Program-made: the position numbers and the translations under genes
Notes under the pieces: generated by a model
Database searches by the model: none
What the model saw: only the letters and a program-made list of their open reading frames with translations
Told to the model about the DNA's origin: nothing
Shown here: positions 3,290 through 22,833 of the stretch, piece after piece
Layout: each line of letters begins with the position of its first letter
How positions within the stretch are numbered: position 1 is the stretch's first letter
IMG/VR virus record: IMGVR_UViG_3300021400_000219
Coordinates: 57,970 to 121,969 of that record
DNA length: 64,000 nucleotides
Source: a virus
Strand: one strand, 5' to 3'

Positions 3290-3637
3290 TTAATTTTCAA
3301 AAATAACTTCTTTTCCTTTTTCTGTTATACGATAAATTACTGGGTCTTGAGAAACCTTTTCTACATATCCATCAGATACAAGTTTACGAATACTACCAGA
3401 TACGGTGCGAGAAGAAATAAAAAGTTCTTCTGCAATATCTTTTGCTTTCCAAGTTTCTCTATCAGCATAGTCTTGTAAAAATTTAAGAATTAGCTTACCA
3501 TTATCTGTAAAAGCAGGCTTATTCTTTTTATCAGAACTATTCTTAAAAGTATTCCAATAATCTTCTAAATTTTCAGGAAGAGGATTTGTAGAAAAATTAC
3601 TTTCTACATAATCAATAAAATCAGATTTCAATGACAT
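3290..3637 (-). CDS. MarR-like winged-helix transcriptional regulator
   Basis: wHTH segment DIAEELFISSRTVSGSIRKLVSDGYVEKV. Start taken at the internal ATG 3635-3637, which has an AAAGG RBS. The promoter cassette lies immediately upstream. Confidence 0.55.
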   Translation of the reverse strand: MSLKSDFIDYVESNFSTNPLPENLEDYWNTFKNSSDKKNKPAFTDNGKLILKFLQDYADRETWKAKDIAEELFISSRTVSGSIRKLVSDGYVEKVSQDPVIYRITEKGKEVIFEN

Positions 3638-3650
3638 AAAATATACAACC

Positions 3651-3700
3651 TTTCTCATTTCTATATATATTATATCATTATTTTTTTATAAAATCAATTA
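3651..3700 (-). promoter_or_regulatory. P-cassette: sigma70-like promoter plus conserved leader
   Basis: Reverse complement contains TATAATATATATAGAAA. Sits upstream of gene 3290-3637. Confidence 0.6.
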
Positions 3701-4558
3701 AGAAATTTCATCTAAAAAAATTAATTCTTGAGCATAGGGCAGTCCTCGTGCAAAAGACATGAAAGCATCAGACCATTCAGTTAACTTATGATTACGACGC
3801 TGTCCTTTTGAACACATGCCTAAAAGATTTTCATAATTACAAGTCCAAGTCCTAGTTTGTAACCAACCTTCTGGTAACCAACGAATTAATTCTTTCCAAT
3901 AACGCTTATCTTTTGTTTCATTATACTTTTGTCTTAAAAATTCTAATTGTTCAATAAAAAATTCTGATAATTGTTTAATTGAATTTTCTCCGGCAGGAGT
4001 AAAAGCATCTTCTTCTTGCTTATAATAAATTAAATCTGGATTAAAATCATCAGTTTCAAAACATTTAAGTGTAATTGGAGTAGATGCTAATTTATGCATT
4101 GTAGAAGTAGAGTTGCTTACAGTTCCTACTTTATAAGTATCCATTTCTTTCCACCAATATAAAGGAGCTGTAATATCTACAGATACAAAAATCTAACGCA
4201 TAAATTTACGATGTTCAGAACCTGCTTTGATTAAACGCTATGCTAAAAATAAATCTTCTGGACCAATAAATGCACTTAAAAATGTATCATCAGGGCCCTC
4301 TTCTAAAGTTCCATTTTTTAAAAGCCAATCTATATAATGTTCATAACAACGTTCTGCATCTCTATTAGTAGGATATTCCTATTCCCAATTTGGATATTTT
4401 AAACTGGTCCAAGCAGATGCTATATCATCTAATTGATTAACATCCCAAATATTTGTAATACCAAACCAACTATCACTTTTATTCCAAGAGTTCATAGGAT
4501 TTCGCATTCCTCGGAACGCATTTTCAAAATTATAAACTTTGATATTCTCAAATTTCAT
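3698..4558 (-). CDS. ThyX-family protein (flavin-dependent thymidylate synthase fold) with a divergent RHR region; contains in-frame TAG codons
   Basis: ORF 3698-4144 and its upstream extension share one frame and are joined by three TAGs. Similar to Thermotoga ThyX at (GSEH..IFVS..APLYWW) and near the C-terminus (LPYAQELI versus HAQWEI). The RHR motif is not recognisable. ATG at 4556-4558 follows a GGAGG RBS. Confidence 0.5.
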
Positions 4559-4884: not shown

Positions 4885-5922
4885 TCACCTCATAGAATAT
4901 CCATAGTCTTTTGCGTGATAAAATTCTTGCCAATATTGTTCTCTTTCATTTAATTGTAAAGGTTGACATTCTTCAATAACTTCAAATGTAAAATTTTCTG
5001 GACCAATTTCATACATTGCTGGATAAAGTTTATTACGTGTAGCTACTTCTGCGCCTATTCCACGTTTAATATGTTGACGCCATCTCTCAGCAATATTAAC
5101 TGCTTGTCCAACATAACACATCTAATTTTTAATATTAGTAATTTTATAAATACCAGTATGCTATCCCTATCCAATAACTCTACCAACTAAATCAGTATAA
5201 GGTCTTTCATAATAACACTTATAAATTACTTTATTAAGAGGAAGGCTATCTCTAAAATAAGGCAATATTTCTCTTAATCTTTTAATCTCTACCTAATCAC
5301 TTAAAGATAATTTTAAACGATAAAAAGAATCATCGTCTTCTTTTTGCTAAGTTCTTTTGGCTACTTCAATAGCTGCTGAAACTTTACTACGCTCATTTTC
5401 TAATTGATTTTTTAATTCATCAGTTTCTTGACGCAAAGAACCTAACTTAGAATATAATTTACTTGTCTATTCTTTAAAATCTTCTTTAGCATCTTCCAAA
5501 AGAGAAAGATAAGTTTTATTTATATCTTCTCTTCTTTGCTAAAGATTTTTACTTAAACGCTCCATTTCATGTTCATAGCTTTCTTGAGCGCTTTGTCTAG
5601 CAGTTTCATATATAGCTGCGGCCGCAGTTTTCTACTATTCAGTTAAATCTTTTAGATGTTCTTTAGTACGAGCAATTTCCTATTCTTTTAAATCAATATC
5701 TTTTATTAAAGTTTGTAAAATATCTCCACGCTGTTCTATTAACTACTAAATCTAGTTTGCCTAATCTTGCAAAGTATTAATACTTACTCTTAAACTATCT
5801 CGCTATATTACTAAAGCGGCATTAGATTCCTATATTTTTTGTAATTTTGGTTTTAATTTTAAATAGCAAATGCCGGCGCCCACTCCGCCTGCAGCTATAG
5901 TTAATAAAATTATAAAAATCAT
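4885..5922 (-). CDS. fusion protein: N-terminal transmembrane helix, long coiled coil and C-terminal GIY-YIG nuclease domain; about 19 in-frame TAG codons
   Basis: Frame checked codon by codon from the ATG at 5920-5922 down to the TGA at 4885-4887; no TAA or TGA in between. N-terminus MIFIILLTIAAGGVGAGICYL is hydrophobic. C-terminus GIYKITNIKN(TAG)MCYVGQAVNIAERWRQH is a canonical GIY-YIG motif. Confidence 0.6.
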
Positions 5923-13643: not shown

Positions 13644-14074
13644 TATTTAGAAGCTAATTTGTCTGCTAACTCATTCCATTTATCTCCTGAGTGACCTTTT
13701 ACTTTTTTTAATTCAACTCTATATCCATTCTGCCAATGCTTATAAAAAGGTTGGATTAAATCTAAATTTTCAGGCGTTTTATTATCTGCCTTTAGCCATC
13801 CTTTATTTGCCCAATTAAACATCCAAGAGGAAAAAATATTTATACAATATGCGCTATCAGAATATATTATTGGAATACTGCTATTAGATGACTAAGTCCC
13901 GTATCTTAAAAAAGCCCATAAAATGGCTTTAAGTTCTTCTCTATTATTAGTTGTCTCTTGGCAATATTCAGTATGAGTAGTAATTAAATTTTCATTATCG
14001 TCTAATATAATTACTGCAAAACCTCCTGGCCCACCTGGATTAGAACGACAGCTACCATCTGTGTAAATAATCAT
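13644..14074 (-). CDS. rnh: ribonuclease H (RNase HI-like) with in-frame TAG
   Basis: N-terminus MIIYTDGSCRSNPGGPGG...TTNNREEL matches the RNase HI motifs TDGSC and TTNNRMEL. The ORF continues through TAG at 13892-13894. Confidence 0.7.
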
Positions 14075-14354
14075 TATTTTTTTAACTCCACATCTTTTGG
14101 TAAATATAATAAAATTACATTATCAGGCAATAATTGTCTAATATGTTCAAATACTTGACGAAAAGTATCATAATCATATGTAAAATCTGGCATACAAATT
14201 CTAATAACATCTCCAGGTTTAAGTTCATTTACATTAAAATTTAATTTTTTTAATGTAATGTCTTTAATCTCAATCATAATATGCTCCTTTAATTGACATA
14301 TCATTATATTTTTCTTATTATATATATTATACAATATTTTTTAAATAAAAACAA

Positions 14355-14392
14355 TAAAAAGGGTTTGAGAAAAATCCCAAACCCTTTTTATA
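14355..14392 (-). terminator. rho-independent terminator hairpin
   Basis: AAAAGGGTTTG(AGAAAAATC)CAAACCCTTTT with flanking T and A tracts. Confidence 0.6.
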
Positions 14393-14393
14393 T

Positions 14394-14723
14394 TTAGATA
14401 CCATAATTAATATCTATGTCTTCATTTAATGGAGCATCCCCATTATCAACATCAGCATTTAATTCTGCCATTACTGTTTCAAATTTAATACCGTTCTTTG
14501 TATTTTCTTTTGTTGATTTATTATAATAAAAACACTAGCTTACACCATATGCGCCCCAAGGTAAACTAATCATAGCTGTTAACCAAGGTAAAGAACCAGT
14601 ATAATCTTTCCAAACACAAAATGCTGCTAGTGCTAAAAAAGCAAGTGTTACTATCCATATGAGAATAGACTCTTGGACTAATAATACTTTACTAAATGCT
14701 TTTTTAGATTTTTTCTTCGCCAT
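14394..14723 (-). CDS. holin-like small membrane protein with in-frame TAG
   Basis: Basic N-terminus plus two hydrophobic helices (LIWIVTLAFLALAAFCVW and WLTAMISLPWGAY). Lies immediately upstream of the endolysin and overlaps it. Reads through TAG at 14535-14537 to TAA at 14394-14396. Confidence 0.5.
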
Positions 14724-15747
14724 TTAAAATACGATAAAGAACAGTAACAAATTCCTCACGAGTTAATGGTTTACGATACATTTTACGTCCTTGAGAATCT
14801 CCCTTAATATATTTTTTAGATTCAGCCCATTCACGAGCTTTTTCAGAATAAGATTCAACGTGCTCATCTGCAGCTAAATCTTCTAAATAAGCATTCATTA
14901 ATTCTTTAAATTTATCAAGAGTCATATCTTCATCCTCCTCAATTGGTTTAGTATATTTTTTAGTATAATTTAAATGTATCCATCCTTCTCCAGTATATCC
15001 CCATCCAGTAGAAGAGGTTTTAGAAATATGAACAATAGTATCATTATAATATTTTTTAACAATATTATAATTAGTCCCCGCACCTTTGCGGCAATTTAAA
15101 TAGCCATCATCAGATTTAATGATAACATCGTAATTAACTTCTGTTATTTTATCTTCTACTTTTGGAGTTGTGCCTGGATTTTTTATTACCCAGTAGTATT
15201 TAACTTGCTTTTTAAATAAAGAGTAATCTCCTTGGGTTCTAGCTAATTTAGTAGATGCTGGGTCATTAATAAAAATTGTATTACCAGAGATTTTCCATAC
15301 AACAATATAATGTCCACTTCTAGTCCAATTACCTTTACCCATACAAGCAATTACTAAATCACCATTATCTACAGCAGTTTTTGCTTGAGTATGATAAGAT
15401 GCAGTAGAATTGCCATAAATATTAGCACTATTTAATTGTGTGCATTTTAATCCATATCTTTTAAAAGCAGGAACAAAGTATGAATAATATGTTCCAGAGT
15501 TTAATGCTTTATAACCATTCTTTAAAGCCCAAGCACATTCTGTTTTTGGTGTAACATTTTTATCAGCCCACGTTGCTAAAATCATAGCAGCACTACTGGG
15601 GCCGCAACCTGAACCGCCAATAGTGCTGCTTTCACCTTTTACTGCATAAGGTATGTTTTTCCAACGAGGGTCTGTTTGAAAATATGAAACTGGTTGTTGT
15701 GCCATATTTTCTTCCCTCCTTATAATAATTTTAAACGTATTAACCAC
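14704..15747 (-). CDS. endolysin: cysteine peptidase domain (NlpC/CHAP/C39-like, GCGPSSAAM) plus two C-terminal SH3b-like wall-binding repeats
   Basis: Peptidase motif with the putative catalytic Cys near the N-terminus. The C-terminus carries duplicated YxxxxGWGYTGEGW-type SH3b repeats. Confidence 0.7.
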   Translation of the reverse strand: MVNTFKIIIRREENMAQQPVSYFQTDPRWKNIPYAVKGESSTIGGSGCGPSSAAMILATWADKNVTPKTECAWALKNGYKALNSGTYYSYFVPAFKRYGLKCTQLNSANIYGNSTASYHTQAKTAVDNGDLVIACMGKGNWTRSGHYIVVWKISGNTIFINDPASTKLARTQGDYSLFKKQVKYYWVIKNPGTTPKVEDKITEVNYDVIIKSDDGYLNCRKGAGTNYNIVKKYYNDTIVHISKTSSTGWGYTGEGWIHLNYTKKYTKPIEEDEDMTLDKFKELMNAYLEDLAADEHVESYSEKAREWAESKKYIKGDSQGRKMYRKPLTREEFVTVLYRILNGEEKI

Positions 15748-15956
15748 TCTGATAAAGTTTCTGTTTCCATTTCATTTTTAAAATGTTTTTGACGTTCTTC
15801 ATTATATATCTAAATTATATATTCAATAGAAGCTGAATTCCAATAATCCCAAAAAGGTTTTATATACTAAACAAATGCTTGTTCTGTATATAATATTTCT
15901 TTTGGATGCATTTTCCATATCGAAGAGTGTAAAATAAAATAATGATAAATAGTTAA

Positions 15957-16703
15957 CTAAACAATTTTATATTCTAAATTCTTTTGTTTTTCAATGGGTA
16001 ATGTTTTTATAAAATCATGAGCATAAGCACAAGCTTTAATAAAATCAATTGCATTATTAAAACGATATTCTCCTTCATTTTTTCTAGTAATACTATCTTT
16101 TCCCCAACGCCAAACATAAGATATAATATTTAAAAATCCAATTTTATTAGCACATTCTGCCGCGATGCTTAAAAAATAAGTATCTTCATGCACTCTTAAA
16201 TCAGGATGAAATTTTATGTTATTTTCTAAAAGAAAAGATCTTTTAAACATTTTACCGTGCATCCAAGTATTTTCAACTTTATGTGTAATATAAATCATTT
16301 GATTATTCTATAAATTATAACTTTCTTCTAACCAAAGAGTTTTTAAAATATCCCAATCTTTTTGCTACATTTCTTGAAGCATTGCTCCTAAACTACCTAC
16401 ATTATGTAAACTATCATCAGCATCACAAAACATTACATATTTTCCAATTGCATTGCTAAGACCAAATTGTCTAGCTACTCCAGGCCCTTGATTTATAGAT
16501 AAAACCTTTTGTTGTATAGTAATATCTAATAAATGAAATTGAGATAAATCTATAGGTTTTGTACCATCTCTAACAAGAATAATTTCAATTTTGGATAAAT
16601 CAATACCTACTTGATTATTAATACTTGATAATAAAGGCATTAATTTTTTTTCAGTTTCTTTATAACTAGGAATTATGATTGACAATATTATATTATTTTC
16701 CAT
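15957..16703 (-). CDS. family 2 glycosyltransferase (GT-A) with in-frame TAG
   Basis: SIIIPSYKE N-terminus and a DADD (DxD) motif. ORF fragments 16365-16703 and 15957-16298 share one frame and are joined through TAG. Confidence 0.6.
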
Positions 16704-16716
16704 ATATTTATTCCTT

Positions 16717-17896
16717 ATAATAAATTTGCTAATTCAGCTATTTTACTACGGTGAATTTGCTAAAGTGTTACTTCACCATAAAAATTATGTCCTCTAAATA
16801 TCTTAGATATTCTACGCATACCGTTATTTGCGCCATCATATTCTATTAAATCCACTTGACTTTCAGTGTCACCATCAAGTATCATAATACAATCTTCGCC
16901 TACTCGCTATAATGCAAGTTTAGCAAGAGTGATATCTAAATTCTATGCTTCAGTTATATAAATACCAGCATTCATTCCAGAAGTATCATAACCTCTAATA
17001 TCACTCATAGGTAAAAGAATTAATTTATTTTCTTCAATTAAACGCAAAACAGCCTCTTGTCCACCTAATTTACTTGATAGCATATTGCCAATTTGAGCAT
17101 CTAATAATTTTTCATTTTTATCTCCTGGATAATAACCAAGTTTAGCCGCATTGCGAGTAGCTACAGTATTACAAAAAACAATTATTTTATCTATGCGATT
17201 ATGTTCTAATAAATAAAATAAATATCCAAGAGCTAGATGAGATTTTCCCGCGCCAGATGGACCTCGCAGCATAGTAATTTGATTATTTAATAAACTATCA
17301 GCGGCCATTGCCTAAAAAATATCATCTTTATAAGGTTTAATATTTCCAAACCAATCACTGTCAAAAGTTTTATATTTAAGTGGTCTAAATTCAGATCCGG
17401 TCCAACATAAAGTATCTACTCTATCTCCACGGCAATCCCAGATATTAATATATTCATTTGTTTGAATATTTGGTAAATTTAAATGACCTTCATAAAGTAA
17501 AGCTAATTCTTCATCTGATAAATCTATATCTTTATAACCTGTATAATTATCAGGTTCTATAATAATACTTTTTACTTCTATAGGTAAAAATACCGAAGCT
17601 AATTGTTTCATTGCTAAATCATTAGTATAAAAAATAATTTTATCAGATAAGTCTTCTGTCAATATTTGATTATTTAATGCATAAAGTATAGATGCGATAA
17701 TTTTTCCATCATTGTTTAATTCTAAATATCCAAAATCTTTAGAGATATTATCTGTATAGATTAAACATATATATTCATTAATATGTTCATCTAAGAGATG
17801 AAGAAGTGTACGAGCTGTATGTTTTATTCTAGCATCTTTATTTTGTGATACTTTGATTTTTTCTAATTCTTGCAGTGTAATAGAACTAATTACCAC
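16717..17896 (-). CDS. PIN-PhoH (PhoH2-like) fusion ATPase with three in-frame TAG codons
   Basis: PIN-like N-terminus (17312-17896) and PhoH P-loop GPSGAGKSH (16943-17308) are in one frame, separated only by TAG-Ala. Continues to TAA at about 16717. Confidence 0.7.
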
Positions 17897-18264
17897 TATA
17901 GATTCACTGCTCTATTGGAATAAATCTTCATTTAATAATAATAAACTGCTTGTATCATAAATATTAAAAATCATCTTCTTCATCATCCTCTTCTACTTCA
18001 TTTGGAATTATAAATCCAATTTGATTTACAGGTTCTTCACCTAATTCATTTTTTAATTTCTCTAATTGATTAGTGTCTTTCTAAATAGTTAATACCATTG
18101 GACTTTTTCTTAATTCAAGGTATTGCAATAATAAATTTATTATTCCATCACCTAATGGCACTATCCATTGAGTAAATATAACACCTAAGATAAAAGCTAT
18201 TAAAAGTTTAATAGGCAATCACCCCTTTAAATAATCCTATATATTTATAAAAAATATTTAAAGA

Positions 18265-18700
18265 TATTTAATCTATATTGTCCTTATTGCGGTTTGCACG
18301 AATACGTTTATAAAATTCATCTTTATTTTTTAAATACTGCTATAAATTTTGTTGTTCATTTTTTAAAGTATCTTTCATTAGATTTAATTCATCTTGAATT
18401 TGTTGACGCTAATGCTCTAGCATATTTTCCATATAACCGTGTGAATCATATTTTTTACTTTTGTTTACTGAATAATATAGTTGATTAAGCGCAGCTAATT
18501 TATGTTTTAATTCATTGCGACGATATTGAAATAATTTAATAATAGCTCTACGCTATGCTATATTAATTCCAGTTTTTTCATTTTGCATATCTGTGTCTTC
18601 TGGAGCACAATGTGCAATACCTGTAAAATATTGACCTTCATATTCAATAATATATGTAGATACTCCAGAGTCTTTATCATATAAATAATTATGTTCCATA
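18265..18700 (-). CDS. hypothetical protein with in-frame TAG codons
   Basis: Minus-strand frame MEHNYLYDKDSGVSTYIIEYEGQYFTGIAHC... with three TAGs. Confidence 0.35.
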
Positions 18701-18765
18701 ATAAAAATTCCTTTTTCTTTTAATTATACTAAAAGAAAAAGAAAAAGGCAAATTTAAATTAAAAT

Positions 18766-18794
18766 TTGACACTAGAAAAATTTTTTAATATAAT
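18766..18794 (+). promoter_or_regulatory. consensus sigma70 promoter (TTGACA-17-TATAAT)
   Basis: TTGACA at 18766-18771, an exactly 17-nt spacer and TATAAT at 18789-18794. Precedes the peptide/radical SAM operon. Confidence 0.7.
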
Positions 18795-18824
18795 CAATAT
18801 AGAAAATTTTTGGAGGTATTTTTT

Positions 18825-18866
18825 ATGTGTAATATATATAATATTTTATAGTGGAATAGAAAATAA
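18825..18866 (+). CDS. 13-codon small ORF (MCNIYNIL-TAG-WNRK) preceding the radical SAM genes; candidate leader or precursor peptide
   Basis: ATG 9 nt after a GGAGG RBS. Contains one TAG and ends with TAA. Confidence 0.35.
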
Positions 18867-18889
18867 AAATTAATAAAGGAAGTAAATAA

Positions 18890-20095
18890 ATGATATTTCA
18901 TGATTGTACTCAATGCACGAGTGAATGTCGGTTACAAACTTTTGAAGCTGTCAGAGATGAATTTTCATCCATTGACAGCTTTAAATATAATTCATAGATT
19001 CACTCTAAACCCACGAATTTATTATTGGGTTTAACAAATAGATGTAATTTATAGTGTAATTATTGTTTTGTAGATTAGAATATTAAAGATATGACTTTTG
19101 AGATTGCGGATTAGGCTATTTAGTGGAGTTTATCTAATTGTCAAAATGAAGAAAAACCAACAATAGGTTTTTTTGGAGGCGAACCTCTTTTAAAATTTAA
19201 AGAAATAATTGTTCCTATTTGTTAGAAATATAAAGATTTAGTAAATTTTAGTATTACGACTAATGGTGTTTTATTAAATGAAGATATAATTGATTTTTTC
19301 TGTGATTATGAAATAATACCATTACTTTCTTTTGATGGAATTCCCTCAGTATAGAATAATTAGCGTTCAAATTCTTTTGATAAAGTCAGAAAGAATATTC
19401 CTTATCTTTTATTACGGTTTCCTCAAACTACTATGCGTGCTACTGTAACAAAAGAATCAATTCCTTATTTATATGAAACTGTTTTAATGGCAGAAGAATT
19501 AGGATTTGAGTCTATTTTTTTCTGTGAAAATGCATATGAAGATTGGGATCAAGAAATCGAAATTTATTTAGAAGAATAGTTTAAAAAAATAGGTTTATAT
19601 ATTTATAAAAAATTAAGGAATAAAGAAAAAGTTATAAAAATTCAACCTTTTAATAGAATTTTTTCTAGTTTATATAAACTTCAATAGAATAAATTATTTT
19701 TTGATAATACTATTTTAAGATGTGGATTAGGAACTACTTCTTGCGCTATTACACCTGATGGTGATATTATACCTTGTCAAGAAAAAATTTCAAATTATTA
19801 GTATACTATTGGAAATATTTATACTGGAATCAATTTCAATTTACATAAAAAATATTTAATAGATTATTTTAATAAAATAAATAATTTACAATGTGATAAA
19901 GGTTGTTCTGATAGAGATAAATTAATTTGTTTATCTCATTTATGTCCTTCTCGCTTAGAAGATTTAAATTATACATTTTCAACAGCATCTTGTGTTTTTT
20001 CTCGGATGGCAACAAAAATTTGTGCAAGATTATTCTTCTTATGTAGCTATAGTTGTGAAGATAATATTAAAGAATATTGGGGTGAAGAAGAATGA
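18890..20095 (+). CDS. radical SAM enzyme with C-terminal SPASM/twitch domain; six in-frame TAG codons
   Basis: Frame verified. CX3CX2C motif is C-N-L-(TAG)-C-N-Y-C; glycine-rich SAM motif GFFGGEPLL. C-terminal Cys clusters CGLGTTSCAITPDGDIIPC and CDKGCSDRDKLIC. TGA stop overlaps the next ATG. Confidence 0.75.
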
Positions 20096-21309
20096 TAGAA
20101 CGCAGATTTAGACCTATTAAAGTTAGAACTATTATATTTACAGAAGCTTGTCCATTAGATTGCCGTTATTGTAGTTTTAAAAAAGATGATACCTTTGGAA
20201 CTAAACGAGATCTTACAAAAGAAGAACTTTTTAATTTAATAGCTGATTATGATAAGCAAGATGATGTAAATGCTGTAAACACTAGAATTTTATTTTCTGG
20301 TGGTGAGCCTTTTTTAAAATGGAGTTGGATAAAAGAAATTATTGAAAAATATTAGCATAGATTTTCTTACTCTTTTAATACTTCTGGCTATCTTTTTACT
20401 GAAGAAATTTTAGAATTTTTATCTCATTATGAAGTAGATTTTAATTTATCTGTAGATGGAAATGAAGCTTTAACCAATTACCTACGTCCAGTTGTTAATA
20501 CTAAATATAAAACAGGCTATATGAAACAATTTAAAAAAATTGTTTCAAATTTATTATATTATTTTCCAATGACACCCTTTAAAGCTATTGTTAATGCTAG
20601 ATATGTAGATTTGTTGTATTAGACATATCGTTTTGCAAATGATTTAGGTTTTCCTTATTTTTCTTTTATTTTAGATTTTAATAATAGAAAAAGAGAAATT
20701 TATAATGAAAAACAAAAAGAAGCTTATTTAGAATGGACAGATAAACATACTAAAATTTTACAAGAATAGTTAGATTTAATTGTACAAGATATTACTACTA
20801 ATTTTTTAATGAATAAAAAAAGAACTCAAATATTAGAATTTAATAAAATAATTTCTTTTTTATTTAATGAAAAAAACTTTTCTCCTGAAAATATGCAATG
20901 TCAGTTATTTAATAATCGTTCGCTTTTAACTTTATATAATAATAACGATAATAAAGAATCTGAACAATATTGTTTAAGTGGAGAGTTCTCTGATATATCA
21001 GTATTACGACAAGAGCTTATGAATCAATATAATTCTTTAAATCATTAGTGCTTATTAGATAAAGATTGTCCAATTTTTGAATATTGTTGTACAACTTGTT
21101 GTATTCAAATAGGATATTTAAAAAATTAGCAATTTTTTAATTTTGATGAATTAGAATGTATTGTTATAAAAAATTGTTATAAAGCAGTTTTAAAATTATT
21201 AGATATAAGTAATGAATTTTGTAAAAATTCATTTTTATATTAGCAATATGTTTTAGATATGATGAAAGAAGGAGGAAATAAAATTGGCGACTTTTCCTTC
21301 AACTCCTAA
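20092..21309 (+). CDS. second radical SAM enzyme with a Cys-rich C-terminal auxiliary-cluster region; about seven in-frame TAG codons
   Basis: CPLDCRYC (CX3CX2C) and SGGEPFL. C-terminus CLLDKDCPIFEYCCTTCC. Frame 0 is continuous from 20092 to TAA at 21307-21309 across several TAGs. Confidence 0.65.
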
Positions 21310-21901
21310 ATGTGATGACTGTCATAATGGAAATAGCTGTAGTAATAGAAATACTGGTGGATGTCATGGATGTAATACTTGTAATTCATCTTGTTAGACT
21401 ATTTGTGAAGTAGGATATCAAACAATAAGTAAACATCCTGATGTTGGTGATTTTGTATGGTCTGAAGTACAAAAGGATATGCTTTTAAAAGATTATTTAA
21501 CAGCGAAAAATTGGAATAAATTAATTCAAAATTTAGAAAAAGCTGAATCTATTGGATAGGCAAAAAGGCAAGGTAGTGCTGGTTCAGCAACCCTCGTTGA
21601 ACCAAATGAAGTTTTTTATGCAAAATACTATAATGAGATTCAAAAAAAATTATCAGGTTTTGAAAATGCATATTTTAGTCCTGTAGATAAAGATGATATT
21701 ATTACTGCTGCCAGAATAAATGCTATTCGCTCCTCTTATTTAAATGCAAAATTTAAATCAAGTGTTTGTGATATATGTAATACATCAGAACAAAATTGTG
21801 CTTGTAATTGTAGCTGTTCTTGTGCTTGTAGTTGCAGTTGTGACTGTGGCCCTTGCTCTTGTCCTTGTTCCCATCCTTGCAATTGTCAAACTAATTCATA
21901 A
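21284..21901 (+). CDS. Cys-rich protein (N-terminal CxxC cluster; C-terminal CACNCSCSCACSCSCDCGPCSCPCSHPCNC repeat); TTG start; two TAGs
   Basis: RBS AAGGAGG 9 nt upstream of the TTG. 205 codons, TAA stop. Last gene of the radical SAM operon. Confidence 0.5.
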
Positions 21902-21924
21902 TATTAAAAAATTTTGAAAAGTGA

Positions 21925-22000
21925 TTTTAATTTTGGATTGCGGATATGTTGGCCCTGGCCGGCCGTAGCAGATATTTTTCTCACGTGTGTGCGTGTATGC
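21925..22000 (+). repeat. GC-rich intergenic element, copy A of 4
   Basis: TTTTGGATTGCGGA...GGCCGTAGCAGAT...CACGTGTGTGCGTG. Shares its core with copies at 33912, 43888 and 54655. GC-rich in an AT-rich genome. Confidence 0.7.
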
Positions 22001-22037
22001 AAAAAATCCTCGTGCATTATGCACGAGGATTTTTATT
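22001..22037. terminator. bidirectional rho-independent terminator
   Basis: Perfect 14-bp stem AAAATCCTCGTGCA(TTAT)TGCACGAGGATTTT with A and T tracts on both sides, between convergent genes. Confidence 0.8.
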
Positions 22038-22833
22038 AACCATAATAGCCTCCATCAGGAGGATCTCTACGATATTGCCAATCTCTAGGACAAGCAATAT
22101 TCATCCAACTAGGTCCGGAGCATTTTCCTTCATGAACACAACGAGCACACTGTCTTCTTTTATATTCATCAACTTTTAACCAAGTTTCATAAGGCTTAAT
22201 TTTAGTAACATCGGGTTCGACGCAAACATCGTGAGGAGTAGTTCCTTCTTCAATTAAATGCGCACTCACCCACTCAGCTTTCATCTCTTGGATAATATCA
22301 TTTAAATTACAAGGATAACAATCGTGAGCATCCATTGCAACATTATACATCCAAAAGTTATTTTCAAAAAAATGCTCTTTTTGATGAGTGTGTCCAAAAA
22401 GATTAAGAGTCATTTGTTTAAGAAACTTATCATTATTTCCAGTAAGAGAAGGAAAATGGCTCATATAAAAATGATATCCTTGATGTTTTAAATAAATAGA
22501 ATTTTTTGTTTCTACTACATTAGCAAGAGTTTGATAAATCTCCCATCTACGATCAGTGTCGTGATTGCCTCTTACAATATGAAATTTACCATTCATTTGT
22601 CGCATTAAATTAGTTGTAAGAGTCATATCAGAACCAAGCATTAAATCACCAAGAATATATACATCTTCGTCTGGCCGCACCATAAAGTTATGACGTTCAA
22701 CAATGGCAAAATTCATTTGTTCAACAGATTCAAAACCACGAGCTTTCCAAATAAATTCTCTATCATGATTTAAATGCCAATCTGAACAAGCCCACACATG
22801 AGGAAGTTCACCAAGAACAATTTTATTAGTCAT
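22036..22833 (-). CDS. calcineurin-like metallophosphoesterase (Pnkp-type phosphatase module)
   Basis: GDxxD..GNHD motifs (ILGDLMLG, RGNHDTD). Overlaps the kinase gene by 8 nt. Confidence 0.7.
   Translation of the reverse strand: MTNKIVLGELPHVWACSDWHLNHDREFIWKARGFESVEQMNFAIVERHNFMVRPDEDVYILGDLMLGSDMTLTTNLMRQMNGKFHIVRGNHDTDRRWEIYQTLANVVETKNSIYLKHQGYHFYMSHFPSLTGNNDKFLKQMTLNLFGHTHQKEHFFENNFWMYNVAMDAHDCYPCNLNDIIQEMKAEWVSAHLIEEGTTPHDVCVEPDVTKIKPYETWLKVDEYKRRQCARCVHEGKCSGPSWMNIACPRDWQYRRDPPDGGYYG

Follow-up and report, generated by a model that had tools for sequence, protein, structure and literature searches.

A probable RiPP-like cassette of two radical SAM enzymes and a cysteine-rich protein in a TAG-recoded phage

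Described maturation systems and the phage locus

The closest described relatives of the system reported here are bacterial radical S-adenosylmethionine (SAM) enzymes with a SPASM domain that act on cysteine-rich peptides. In one of these systems, the peptide PapA contains repeated Cys motifs that are cross-linked as thioethers by PapB (PMC12373016). The locus that we analyzed lies in a stretch of 64,000 nucleotides (nt), hereafter the window, which consists of positions 57,970 to 121,969 of the IMG/VR virus record IMGVR_UViG_3300021400_000219. Three overlapping genes on its plus strand encode a radical SAM/SPASM enzyme of 401 amino acids (aa; rSAM1, 18890-20095, 11 in-frame TAG codons), a divergent radical SAM enzyme of 405 aa with a SPASM-like C-terminal domain containing seven Cys (rSAM2, 20092-21309, 6 TAG codons), and a Cys-rich protein of 205 aa with 24 Cys (21284-21901, 2 TAG codons), which we infer is probably the substrate of the two enzymes. 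We consider it reasonably likely that these genes form a phage cassette resembling those for ribosomally synthesized peptides that undergo post-translational modification (RiPPs), with a protein-sized substrate that would probably acquire Cys thioether cross-links and with translation gated by a suppressor tRNA. An initial annotation of this DNA had listed the sequence features of the locus, and all of them were found where it had placed them.

The profile of PapB, the freyrasin ranthipeptide maturase (NF047865), which combines radical SAM and SPASM domains as the cassette enzymes do, was the best NCBIfam match for both enzymes. This profile of 330 positions aligns from about residue 43 of rSAM1 and therefore covers the radical SAM and SPASM core only; rSAM1 and rSAM2 scored 164.8 and 59.9 bits, respectively, relative to a cut-off of 340. 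Whereas PapA is a short peptide with CX3D/E motifs, the phage cassette has two enzymes and a candidate substrate of protein size (205 aa), in which the repeats are of the CxC and C-x2-3-C types. Among solved structures, CteB of the CteB/CteA SCIFF system was nearest in sequence to both enzymes (5wgg/5why; E = 2.7e-24 with 5wgg for rSAM1 and 6e-9 for rSAM2). It aligns to the SPASM region of rSAM1, and the alignment starts at CteB residue 85, past the N-terminal RiPP recognition element (RRE) of CteB. In contrast, no PqqD/RRE domain was matched in rSAM1 or rSAM2 with Pfam, rSAM1 has about 40 residues ahead of the radical SAM core, the SCIFF maturase profile TIGR03974 gave 107 and 49.6 bits versus a cut-off of 425, and no SCIFF precursor of about 45 residues is adjacent to the phage enzymes.

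The remaining relatives share single aspects with the locus. QhpD, also a radical SAM/SPASM enzyme, forms several Cys thioethers within a protein subunit, QhpC, and not in a peptide that is released. The QhpD profile TIGR03906 scored 100 bits with rSAM1 (cut-off 453), but there are no dehydrogenase genes here and the substrate family is unrelated to the quinohemoprotein amine dehydrogenase gamma-subunit. The CXXX-repeat (TIGR04115), CcpM (TIGR04068) and CefB (NF038107) systems pair a SPASM maturase with a substrate containing periodic Cys; these profiles gave 57-98 bits with rSAM1, below their cut-offs, and their substrates are short bacterial peptides, as opposed to two repeat segments around a folded core. 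HxsB and HxsC are two adjacent radical SAM maturases with a tandem-repeat substrate, and HxsB (TIGR03978) was the second-best profile for rSAM2 (56 bits, cut-off 370); however, that system has His-Xaa-Ser repeats and the partner HxsA rather than Cys repeats. The enzyme anSME (4k36-4k39), the founding SPASM fold, acts on a protein Cys and was the best structural match of the rSAM2 model, but it has only 14-16% identity to rSAM2, its profile TIGR03942 is absent among the 25 rSAM2 matches listed, and there is neither a sulfatase gene among the neighboring genes scanned nor a sulfatase-type C/S-x-P-x-R motif in the Cys-rich protein.

For rSAM1, the order of NCBIfam matches was PapB (165 bits), the nif11 maturase (116), the SCIFF maturase, QhpD, CcpM (98) and the CXXX-repeat maturase (86). 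The top matches of rSAM1 are maturases and all fall below their cut-offs; therefore, by profile comparison rSAM1 is placed within the peptide/protein maturase clade and outside all named families. The resemblance to sactipeptide, ranthipeptide or SCIFF-type maturases suggested in the initial annotation is thus supported, with every score below its cut-off.

Clusters for RiPPs and bacteriocins, such as that of sublancin on SP-beta, are known in phages, but they are rare and occur mostly in temperate phages (10.1101/2020.10.01.322628), and, in contrast to the protein described here, their precursors are short. The same annotation had stated that such systems are not known cargo of phages, which is too strong in view of these prophage clusters, of PHROG 1802, which already groups phage radical SAM proteins, and of the TAG-recoded gut phage phAss-1 (OQ749652.1), in which two radical SAM genes and a homologue of the Cys-rich gene precede gyrB. 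In the phAss-1 paper the word 'radical' is absent, and cysteine appears solely in a table, in the name 'cysteine hydrolase' (PMC10607447); a literature search found no description of this module.

What is known, then, is the enzyme class (SPASM maturases acting on Cys-rich peptides in bacteria) and the logic of RiPP clusters; what is new is the substrate family, the enzyme clade, the code-gated phage setting and diversification at the level of the cassette. Pfam, NCBIfam and PHROGs contain no entry for the substrate family, for which no structural relative could be detected and whose repeat-core-repeat layout is unusual. The module occurs in recoded large gut phages, where it would be producible only once the suppressor tRNA is active, and it acts as an exchangeable cassette, in which the radical SAM genes number one to four and a YcaO or family 2 glycosyltransferase (GT2) gene is sometimes present.

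The cysteine-rich family and its enzyme partners

The 24 Cys of the 205-aa protein are distributed unevenly, with 8 in residues 10-41, none in residues 42-161 and 16 in residues 162-201, in keeping with the C-terminal Cys repeat and the N-terminal CxxC cluster that had been annotated. The protein can be divided into an N-terminal Cys cluster (10-41), a helical core (42-161), a C-D-x-C-N motif (162-166) and a (CxC)n tail (172-201). It had no match in Pfam, NCBIfam, PHROGs or PADLOC, and comparison of the family profile with PDB sequences gave a chance-level match only. The family comprises 41 clusters at 90% identity, and an exhaustive profile search found 158 clusters at 50% identity with E <= 1e-3, 31 of them with E <= 1e-30. 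On the evidence of these alignments, the protein belongs to a genuine family that has been left unannotated.

In the family alignment, C10, C13, C27, C41 and Q38 are invariant, with Q38 encoded by TAG in the window. The N-terminal segment of most members contains C-x3-C-x3-C runs with NxxC, the Cys-free core contains three similar 'ITAxxYN'-type helices, and the C-D-x-C-N motif is invariant, whereas the (CxC)n tail varies in length; Cys is the sole invariant feature of the repeat segments. More distant members retain the core and a motif like C-D-x-C-N, and have CxxC-type repeats at both ends. An AlphaFold model of a 65%-identical homologue (P0002), made with the family alignment, had predicted local distance difference test (pLDDT) values above 90 in the core and below 40 in both Cys-rich ends. 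The protein is therefore confidently predicted to have a folded helical core between two Cys-repeat segments that resist modeling.

Searches for further members differed in yield. When GenBank phages were searched at the DNA and protein levels with the operon, the Cys-rich protein of the window, or the homologues P0016 and P0167, nothing was found, and P0184 alone found phAss-1. When IMG/VR and GTDB genomes were scanned by pattern, using the Cys-rich protein or the alignment, no confirmed locus was obtained, probably due to the low-complexity repeats and to the breaks at TAG codons, and the rSAM2 alignment retrieved two orthologous loci from IMG/VR (L018 and L020).

Conservation of the Cys-rich open reading frame (ORF) in related genomes had been raised as a point on which the RiPP-like interpretation depends. 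It was found that a family member directly follows one to four radical SAM genes in 16 of 16 independent contexts, usually with overlapping stop and start codons. All 11 readable contexts with a CxC tail carry both rSAM1 and rSAM2. These are the window, L001 (an NCBI assembly, 124-kb contig), L002 (174 kb), L003/L004, L005-L007 and L008 (both syntenic to the window), L009, L010, L016 (253-kb contig), L018 and L020; in addition, L009 has a third downstream gene with a weak Radical_SAM match only, and L010 has a methyltransferase gene. The enzyme set differs in the contexts with CxxC-type proteins: a single rSAM1-like enzyme in L011/L012; a truncated rSAM1-like gene upstream in L013, a short contig that stops before another gene is reached; four radical SAM genes in L014; two YcaO genes, one radical SAM gene and a GT2 gene that overlaps the Cys-rich gene in L015; and two radical SAM genes, a gene for a 174-aa homologue and then gyrB in phAss-1 (L017). 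Therefore, the repeat type (CxC or CxxC) tracks the enzyme set. The combination of a constant substrate with variable tailoring enzymes is, as far as the gene content indicates, the logic of RiPP clusters. As a control, we looked at 17 IMG/VR loci with generic radical SAM matches only, and these contained no family members.

Several further observations were made at these loci. One of the control loci (L028) encodes an unrelated 202-aa protein with C-Q-x-C repeats (3348-3956) directly upstream of the generic radical SAM gene, and this pair may illustrate the same theme independently. CxxC-type cassettes (L011 2765-3337, L014 6582-7169 and L017 4167-4748) share a protein of about 190 aa that is not encoded in the window cassette. 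Its C terminus, 'N-I/V-G-F/L ... K-x-K/V-x-F-D-F/Y', resembles by eye the catalytic loop of a small kinase, and it is possible that this protein is an extra tailoring enzyme. In phAss-1, the Cys-rich homologue (L017 6908-7432, or about 67.8-68.35 kb of OQ749652.1) has 3 TAG codons and no annotated feature, so that this gene is wholly missing from the annotation of the deposited genome, and the two radical SAM genes before it are annotated as 'hypothetical' or fragmented.

Comparison of the window with L014 showed how the locus differs between near-identical phages. The flanks are 93-95% identical over 13652-18755 and 80% identical over 21893-22611, whereas between 18755 and 21893 the 3.1 kb of the window are replaced in L014 by an inverted cassette of 5.7 kb, which contains four radical SAM genes and the genes for a CxxC-type Cys-rich protein and a 195-aa protein. 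One breakpoint is located 11 nt before the -35 box of the promoter (18766-18794), and the other coincides with the Cys-rich gene's stop codon; therefore, the replaced unit consists of the promoter, a 13-codon ORF (the mini-ORF, 18825-18866) and the three genes. The terminator and a GC-rich segment (21925-22000) lie in the retained flank. Thus, the locus behaves as a swappable cassette that is exchanged wholesale, and such exchange would be compatible with diversifying selection on its function, for example in competition, counter-defense or host interaction.

Enzymes, recoding and expression signals

The two enzymes had been annotated as radical SAM proteins with SPASM-type C termini. The first part of this claim holds for both: rSAM1 contains C52-x3-C56-x2-C59 and FFGGEPLL, the motifs of rSAM2 are C20-x3-C24-x2-C27 (CPLDCRYC) and SGGEPFL, and the Pfam Radical_SAM profile (PF04055) scored 50.2 and 57 bits, respectively, relative to a threshold of 29.5. 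The second part holds for rSAM1, which passed the Pfam SPASM cut-off (PF13186) marginally with 22.0 versus 21.5 bits, and is less clear for rSAM2, which had no Pfam SPASM match.

In SPASM enzymes (PF13186/TIGR04085), two auxiliary clusters are bound by a C-terminal motif of seven Cys (CX9-15GX4C ... CX2CX5CX3C ... C). The C-terminal pattern of rSAM1 is C278-x12-G-x4-C296, C335-x3-C339-x7-C347-x4-C352, followed by C368. C52, C56, C59, C278, C296 and C352 are present in 8 of 8 homologues, and C285, C335, C339, C347 and C368 in 6 of 8. In rSAM2, which also matched Fer4_12 (42 bits), the spacing is non-canonical (C270, C294, C320-x5-C326-x5-C332-x4-C337, C356), and these seven Cys are invariant, together with C20, C24 and C27, in 44 sequences. 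The AlphaFold2 (AF2) model of rSAM2 had a pLDDT of 88 and a predicted template modeling score (pTM) of 0.88. A Foldseek search with this model matched anSME 4k37 over its full length (E = 6e-13, template modeling (TM) score 0.62-0.68, about 400 columns), and further matches of this extent were CteB, ChlB, TigE and SuiB. The seven invariant Cys and the predicted fold, which shows the full radical SAM and SPASM architecture, suggest that rSAM2 may be of the SPASM type. Both enzymes therefore have a CX3CX2C cluster motif and conserved C-terminal Cys for auxiliary clusters. The rSAM2 family is sharply bounded, in that all 89 clusters have E <= 3e-54 and the range between 3e-54 and 1e-10 is empty, and so appears by sequence to be a discrete clade. 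The rSAM2 orthologue of L010 (6835-8031) is broken by one in-frame TGA at a position where others carry K, G, S or A, which might be explained by an error in the sequence, by a pseudogene or by additional recoding.

Housekeeping families had been named in the initial annotation as the assignment that would speak against maturases, and the profiles of these families scored low. The anSME profile TIGR03942 gave 66.5 bits with rSAM1 (cut-off 349), and NrdG (TIGR02495) and PflA (TIGR02493) gave 29.8 versus 131 and 36 versus 232 bits with rSAM2. The QueE-like phrog_2076 matched rSAM1 with E = 0.015 and rSAM2 with E = 1.3e-6 (29 bits, core coverage only), whereas the best PHROG for both enzymes was phrog_1802 (93 bits for rSAM1 and 71 for rSAM2). 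PADLOC reported core-level similarity to viperin and nothing more, and a GenBank phage search with rSAM2 returned generic N-terminal core matches only.

The ORFs were called with TAA and TGA as the sole stop codons; under the standard code, the same plus-strand stretch (18.7-22.0 kb) breaks into fragments. The three cassette genes contain 19 in-frame TAG codons (11 + 6 + 2), one of which falls within the rSAM1 cluster motif, C52-N-L-(TAG)-C56-N-Y-C59. When the residues aligned to the 19 TAG sites were taken from seven homologues, 52 of 133 were Q, compared to a background of 3.9%, and 3 of the 19 sites are an invariant Q in the homologues. A suppressor tRNA with the anticodon CTA is encoded on the minus strand at 41018-41092 (ARAGORN and Rfam tRNA, 57 bits). 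The recoding described in the initial annotation, including that within CX3CX2C, is consistent with these results, which support the view that TAG is read as Gln by the phage tRNA-Sup(CTA). Because of the 19 in-frame TAG codons, full-length products of the cassette genes would need this tRNA. The tRNA gene is part of an array of 23 tRNA genes (39935-50339, minus strand).

A tail-fiber-like gene is among the TAG-rich genes of the window, whereas the ligase, topoisomerase and other replication genes are without TAG. Judged from its TAG content, the cassette is presumably expressed in a late, recoded phase. The most recoded ORF of the window (4885-5922, minus strand, 16 TAG in 345 codons) encodes a long N-terminal part, apparently coiled-coil by eye, fused to a GIY-YIG homing-endonuclease domain, and a similar coiled-coil/GIY-YIG-type fusion follows the topoisomerase genes of phAss-1 (L017 11275-12255).

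The sigma-70-type promoter that had been annotated at 18766-18794 on the plus strand (TTGACA-17 nt-TATAAT) matches the consensus at 12 of 12 positions, is the single such site in a pattern scan of 17.5-23 kb, and has both hexamers kept in the syntenic relatives L005 and L008. Transcription from it can, judging by this consensus, be started by the host RNA polymerase. The window has 15 sites with at most one mismatch to the sigma-70 consensus, 10-fold more than the 1.5 expected, and none of 100 shuffles reached 15. Five perfect copies of TTGACA-17-TATAAT are present in the whole window, and several near-perfect copies are found within the tRNA array. The rSAM1 stop codon and the rSAM2 start codon share an ATGA overlap, and the Cys-rich ORF begins with a TTG codon 8 nt 3' of AAGGAGG, in a 26-nt overlap with rSAM2; the three genes are thus translationally coupled.

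The cassette and a convergent Metallophos gene share an intrinsic-terminator hairpin at 22002-22034, which has a 15-bp stem, a 3-nt loop, an A-run on the 5' side and a U-run on the 3' side, as befits the bidirectional terminator that had been annotated. It was not reported by the pattern scanner, and it is identical in L005 and L008 save for one loop base. The GC-rich segment at 21925-22000, between the stop codon of the Cys-rich gene and the hairpin, is also kept in L005 and L008 and stays beside the Metallophos gene in L014 despite the replaced, inverted cassette there. Together with the hairpin, it has a folding z of -3.1, and Rfam gave no significant match for the operon and its 3' region, including this segment. 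It may be a small RNA or a 3' untranslated element of the minus-strand gene.

Proposed mechanism, alternatives and neighboring genes

In the mechanism that we propose, each enzyme would cleave SAM to give a 5'-deoxyadenosyl radical, which would abstract a hydrogen from a residue located in one or the other Cys-repeat segment, and the sulfur of a neighboring Cys would then be joined to that carbon in a thioether cross-link, as by PapB, CteB and QhpD. There is no RRE in either enzyme, and therefore the folded core (42-161) is proposed as the docking element that would replace the RRE/leader interaction, with the flanking Cys segments serving as two 'cores'. The two segment types might be divided between rSAM1 and rSAM2. 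This would yield a compact protein with many cross-links, made in the recoded and presumably late phase. With respect to the definition of RiPP systems, a precursor-like gene beside modifying enzymes is present (in all 16 contexts, where genes overlap and the tailoring enzymes vary), whereas a leader and core with an RRE and proteolytic release were not found, there being no PqqD/RRE match and no protease or transporter in the swapped unit. If the protein is truly cross-linked, it would provide a new protein-sized scaffold and new enzyme clades for RiPP enzymology, as well as a new class of phage auxiliary function that is likely under diversifying selection.

A number of points weigh against this interpretation. 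Thioether formation is suggested by the nearest characterized relatives only, the assignment of one enzyme to each segment is speculation, and the late timing comes from TAG content and not from measurement. Both enzymes score far under the curated NCBIfam cut-off of every named maturase family, and the tentative SPASM assignment of rSAM2 is made despite the missing Pfam match. The rSAM1 orthologues of L001 and L009 lack five of the auxiliary-cluster Cys while keeping C278, C296 and C352, and may, to judge from these residues, retain a single auxiliary cluster. The size of 205 aa and the dual Cys segments are atypical for RiPP precursors, and CxC repeats are also typical of metal-binding proteins. 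Furthermore, no protease, transporter or immunity gene is present in the swapped unit, which leaves the release of a small product unsupported and argues against a classical secreted bacteriocin.

The main alternative is that the Cys-rich protein serves as a partner that binds metal or Fe-S clusters, either metallothionein-like or a scaffold or donor for clusters or sulfur, and that the enzymes act elsewhere. The CxC/CxxC repeats, with 24 Cys in 205 residues located in segments that AF2 cannot order without ligands, would suit such a role, as would the need of SPASM enzymes for up to three [4Fe-4S] clusters each, and covalent modification of the protein is itself something that we infer. However, no metallothionein or Fe-S scaffold family in Pfam or NCBIfam matched the protein, and apart from its CxC motifs it departs from metallothioneins, which are smaller than about 100 aa, in its 205-aa length and its 120-residue Cys-free folded core. 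Moreover, enzyme sets differ between the repeat types, YcaO (an enzyme of peptide backbones) is encoded directly beside the protein in L015, the nearest characterized relatives of the enzymes all modify peptides or proteins, and the module contains no conserved gene for another substrate, so that we regard a metal-binding partner as rather unlikely. The enzyme-substrate pair could also be correct and the chemistry different, namely formylglycine formation (as by anSME), C-C or C-O cross-links, epimerization or methylation. The rSAM2 model matches anSME best, SPASM enzymes catalyze many reactions, and both enzymes lie far from every equivalog cut-off; nevertheless, the C/S-x-P-x-R motif is lacking, the top rSAM1 matches mature Cys-rich peptides or proteins and include several known thioether formers (PapB, SCIFF and QhpD), and only Cys is invariant in the repeats. 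We therefore give a different chemistry a similarly low probability.

Two further explanations appear very improbable. One is that the radical SAM enzymes modify a nucleic acid or a small molecule, for example in DNA hypermodification, with the Cys-rich gene as a hitch-hiker. In L001, L003, L009, L011, L013 and L017, the module adjoins genes for gyrase, topoisomerase IV or ligase, and radical SAM enzymes occur in the thymidine hypermodification clusters of phages (PMC8989533), but a hitch-hiker is hard to reconcile with adjacency and overlapping stop and start codons in the 16 contexts, with a swap that moves the enzymes and the Cys-rich gene together, or with the poor scores of the QueE and NrdG profiles. 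The other, to which we attach hardly any weight, is that the mini-ORF (plus strand, MCNIYNIL-TAG-WNRK, of uncertain status) encodes the actual RiPP precursor, or else a leader peptide with a regulatory role, in which TAG senses the suppressor tRNA. The initial annotation had placed it in the operon as a leader, and it is indeed there, with a GGAGG ribosome-binding site 8 nt upstream; in L005 and L008, the ATG-TGT start and the internal TAG are kept, and the lengths of 13, 10 and 21 codons (window, L005 and L008) differ in frame. It does not stand as a conserved component of the module, however, because it is confined to these three closest relatives, has one or two Cys, and no counterpart was found upstream of rSAM1 in L001, L002, L003, L009, L010 or L011. 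Three sequences are too few for a test of coding constraint. In view of the restriction to these relatives and the variable length, it was rejected as the precursor, and on sequence comparison the mini-ORF can be regarded neither as the substrate nor as a component that defines the module, although it may be a translated upstream ORF.

Building on the RiPP-like interpretation with its protein-sized substrate, a broader and more tentative proposal is that TAG-recoded large gut phages (the phAss-1 group, with predicted Clostridia hosts) keep a hypervariable 'protein-RiPP' locus, in which a docking core with two variable Cys arms is combined with swappable sets of radical SAM, YcaO and glycosyltransferase genes to yield a cross-linked effector or virion component engaged in an arms race. 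As part of this same possibility, the product might serve in competition between phages or between bacteria, in counter-defense, or in inhibition of a host target such as topoisomerase, next to the phage-encoded replacements of which the module usually lies. If true, this would be the first RiPP-type pathway core to the lytic program of virulent-type phages, and two cores around a folded recognition domain would be a new precursor architecture.

Among the neighboring genes, a GT2 glycosyltransferase gene at 15720-16703 on the minus strand (Pfam Glycos_transf_2, 62 bits; 5 TAG) is an insertion relative to L005, L008 and L014. Its product shares 29% identity (full length, E = 8e-32) with the GT2 encoded by the gene that overlaps the Cys-rich gene in L015; its best PDB sequence match is 5tze ('Glycosyl transferase'), and its top NCBIfam matches include TuaG and EpsD, of teichuronic-acid and exopolysaccharide synthesis. 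It is possibly a further tailoring enzyme with a weak link to the cassette, and a role in cell-wall metabolism is equally possible. A C39_2 peptidase gene (14704-15747) was considered as a source of a leader peptidase and rejected, as it lies in the conserved flank and comes with no transporter, and the surroundings of the cassette in L001-L003, L009 and L010 lack it. Lysis genes fill the equivalent neighborhood in L009, L011 and phAss-1, and our guess is that the peptidase has an endolysin-type role.

A set of RNA-repair-like genes flanks the cassette on the minus strand (22036-25919 and 38198-39715), encoding the Metallophos phosphoesterase, an AAA_33/KTI12-type kinase, an RNA ligase and an RNA-binding protein of phrog_850 (460 bits). 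Genes of both the Metallophos and the AAA_33 type are also near the cassette in L005, L008 and L010; of the two, L014 has only the Metallophos gene there and L003 only the AAA_33 gene. Finally, an ORF of 816 aa without TAG codons (30765-33215, minus strand) has the domains of the eukaryotic-type major vault protein (MVP_shoulder 83 bits, Vault_3 38 bits), which is unusual for a phage.

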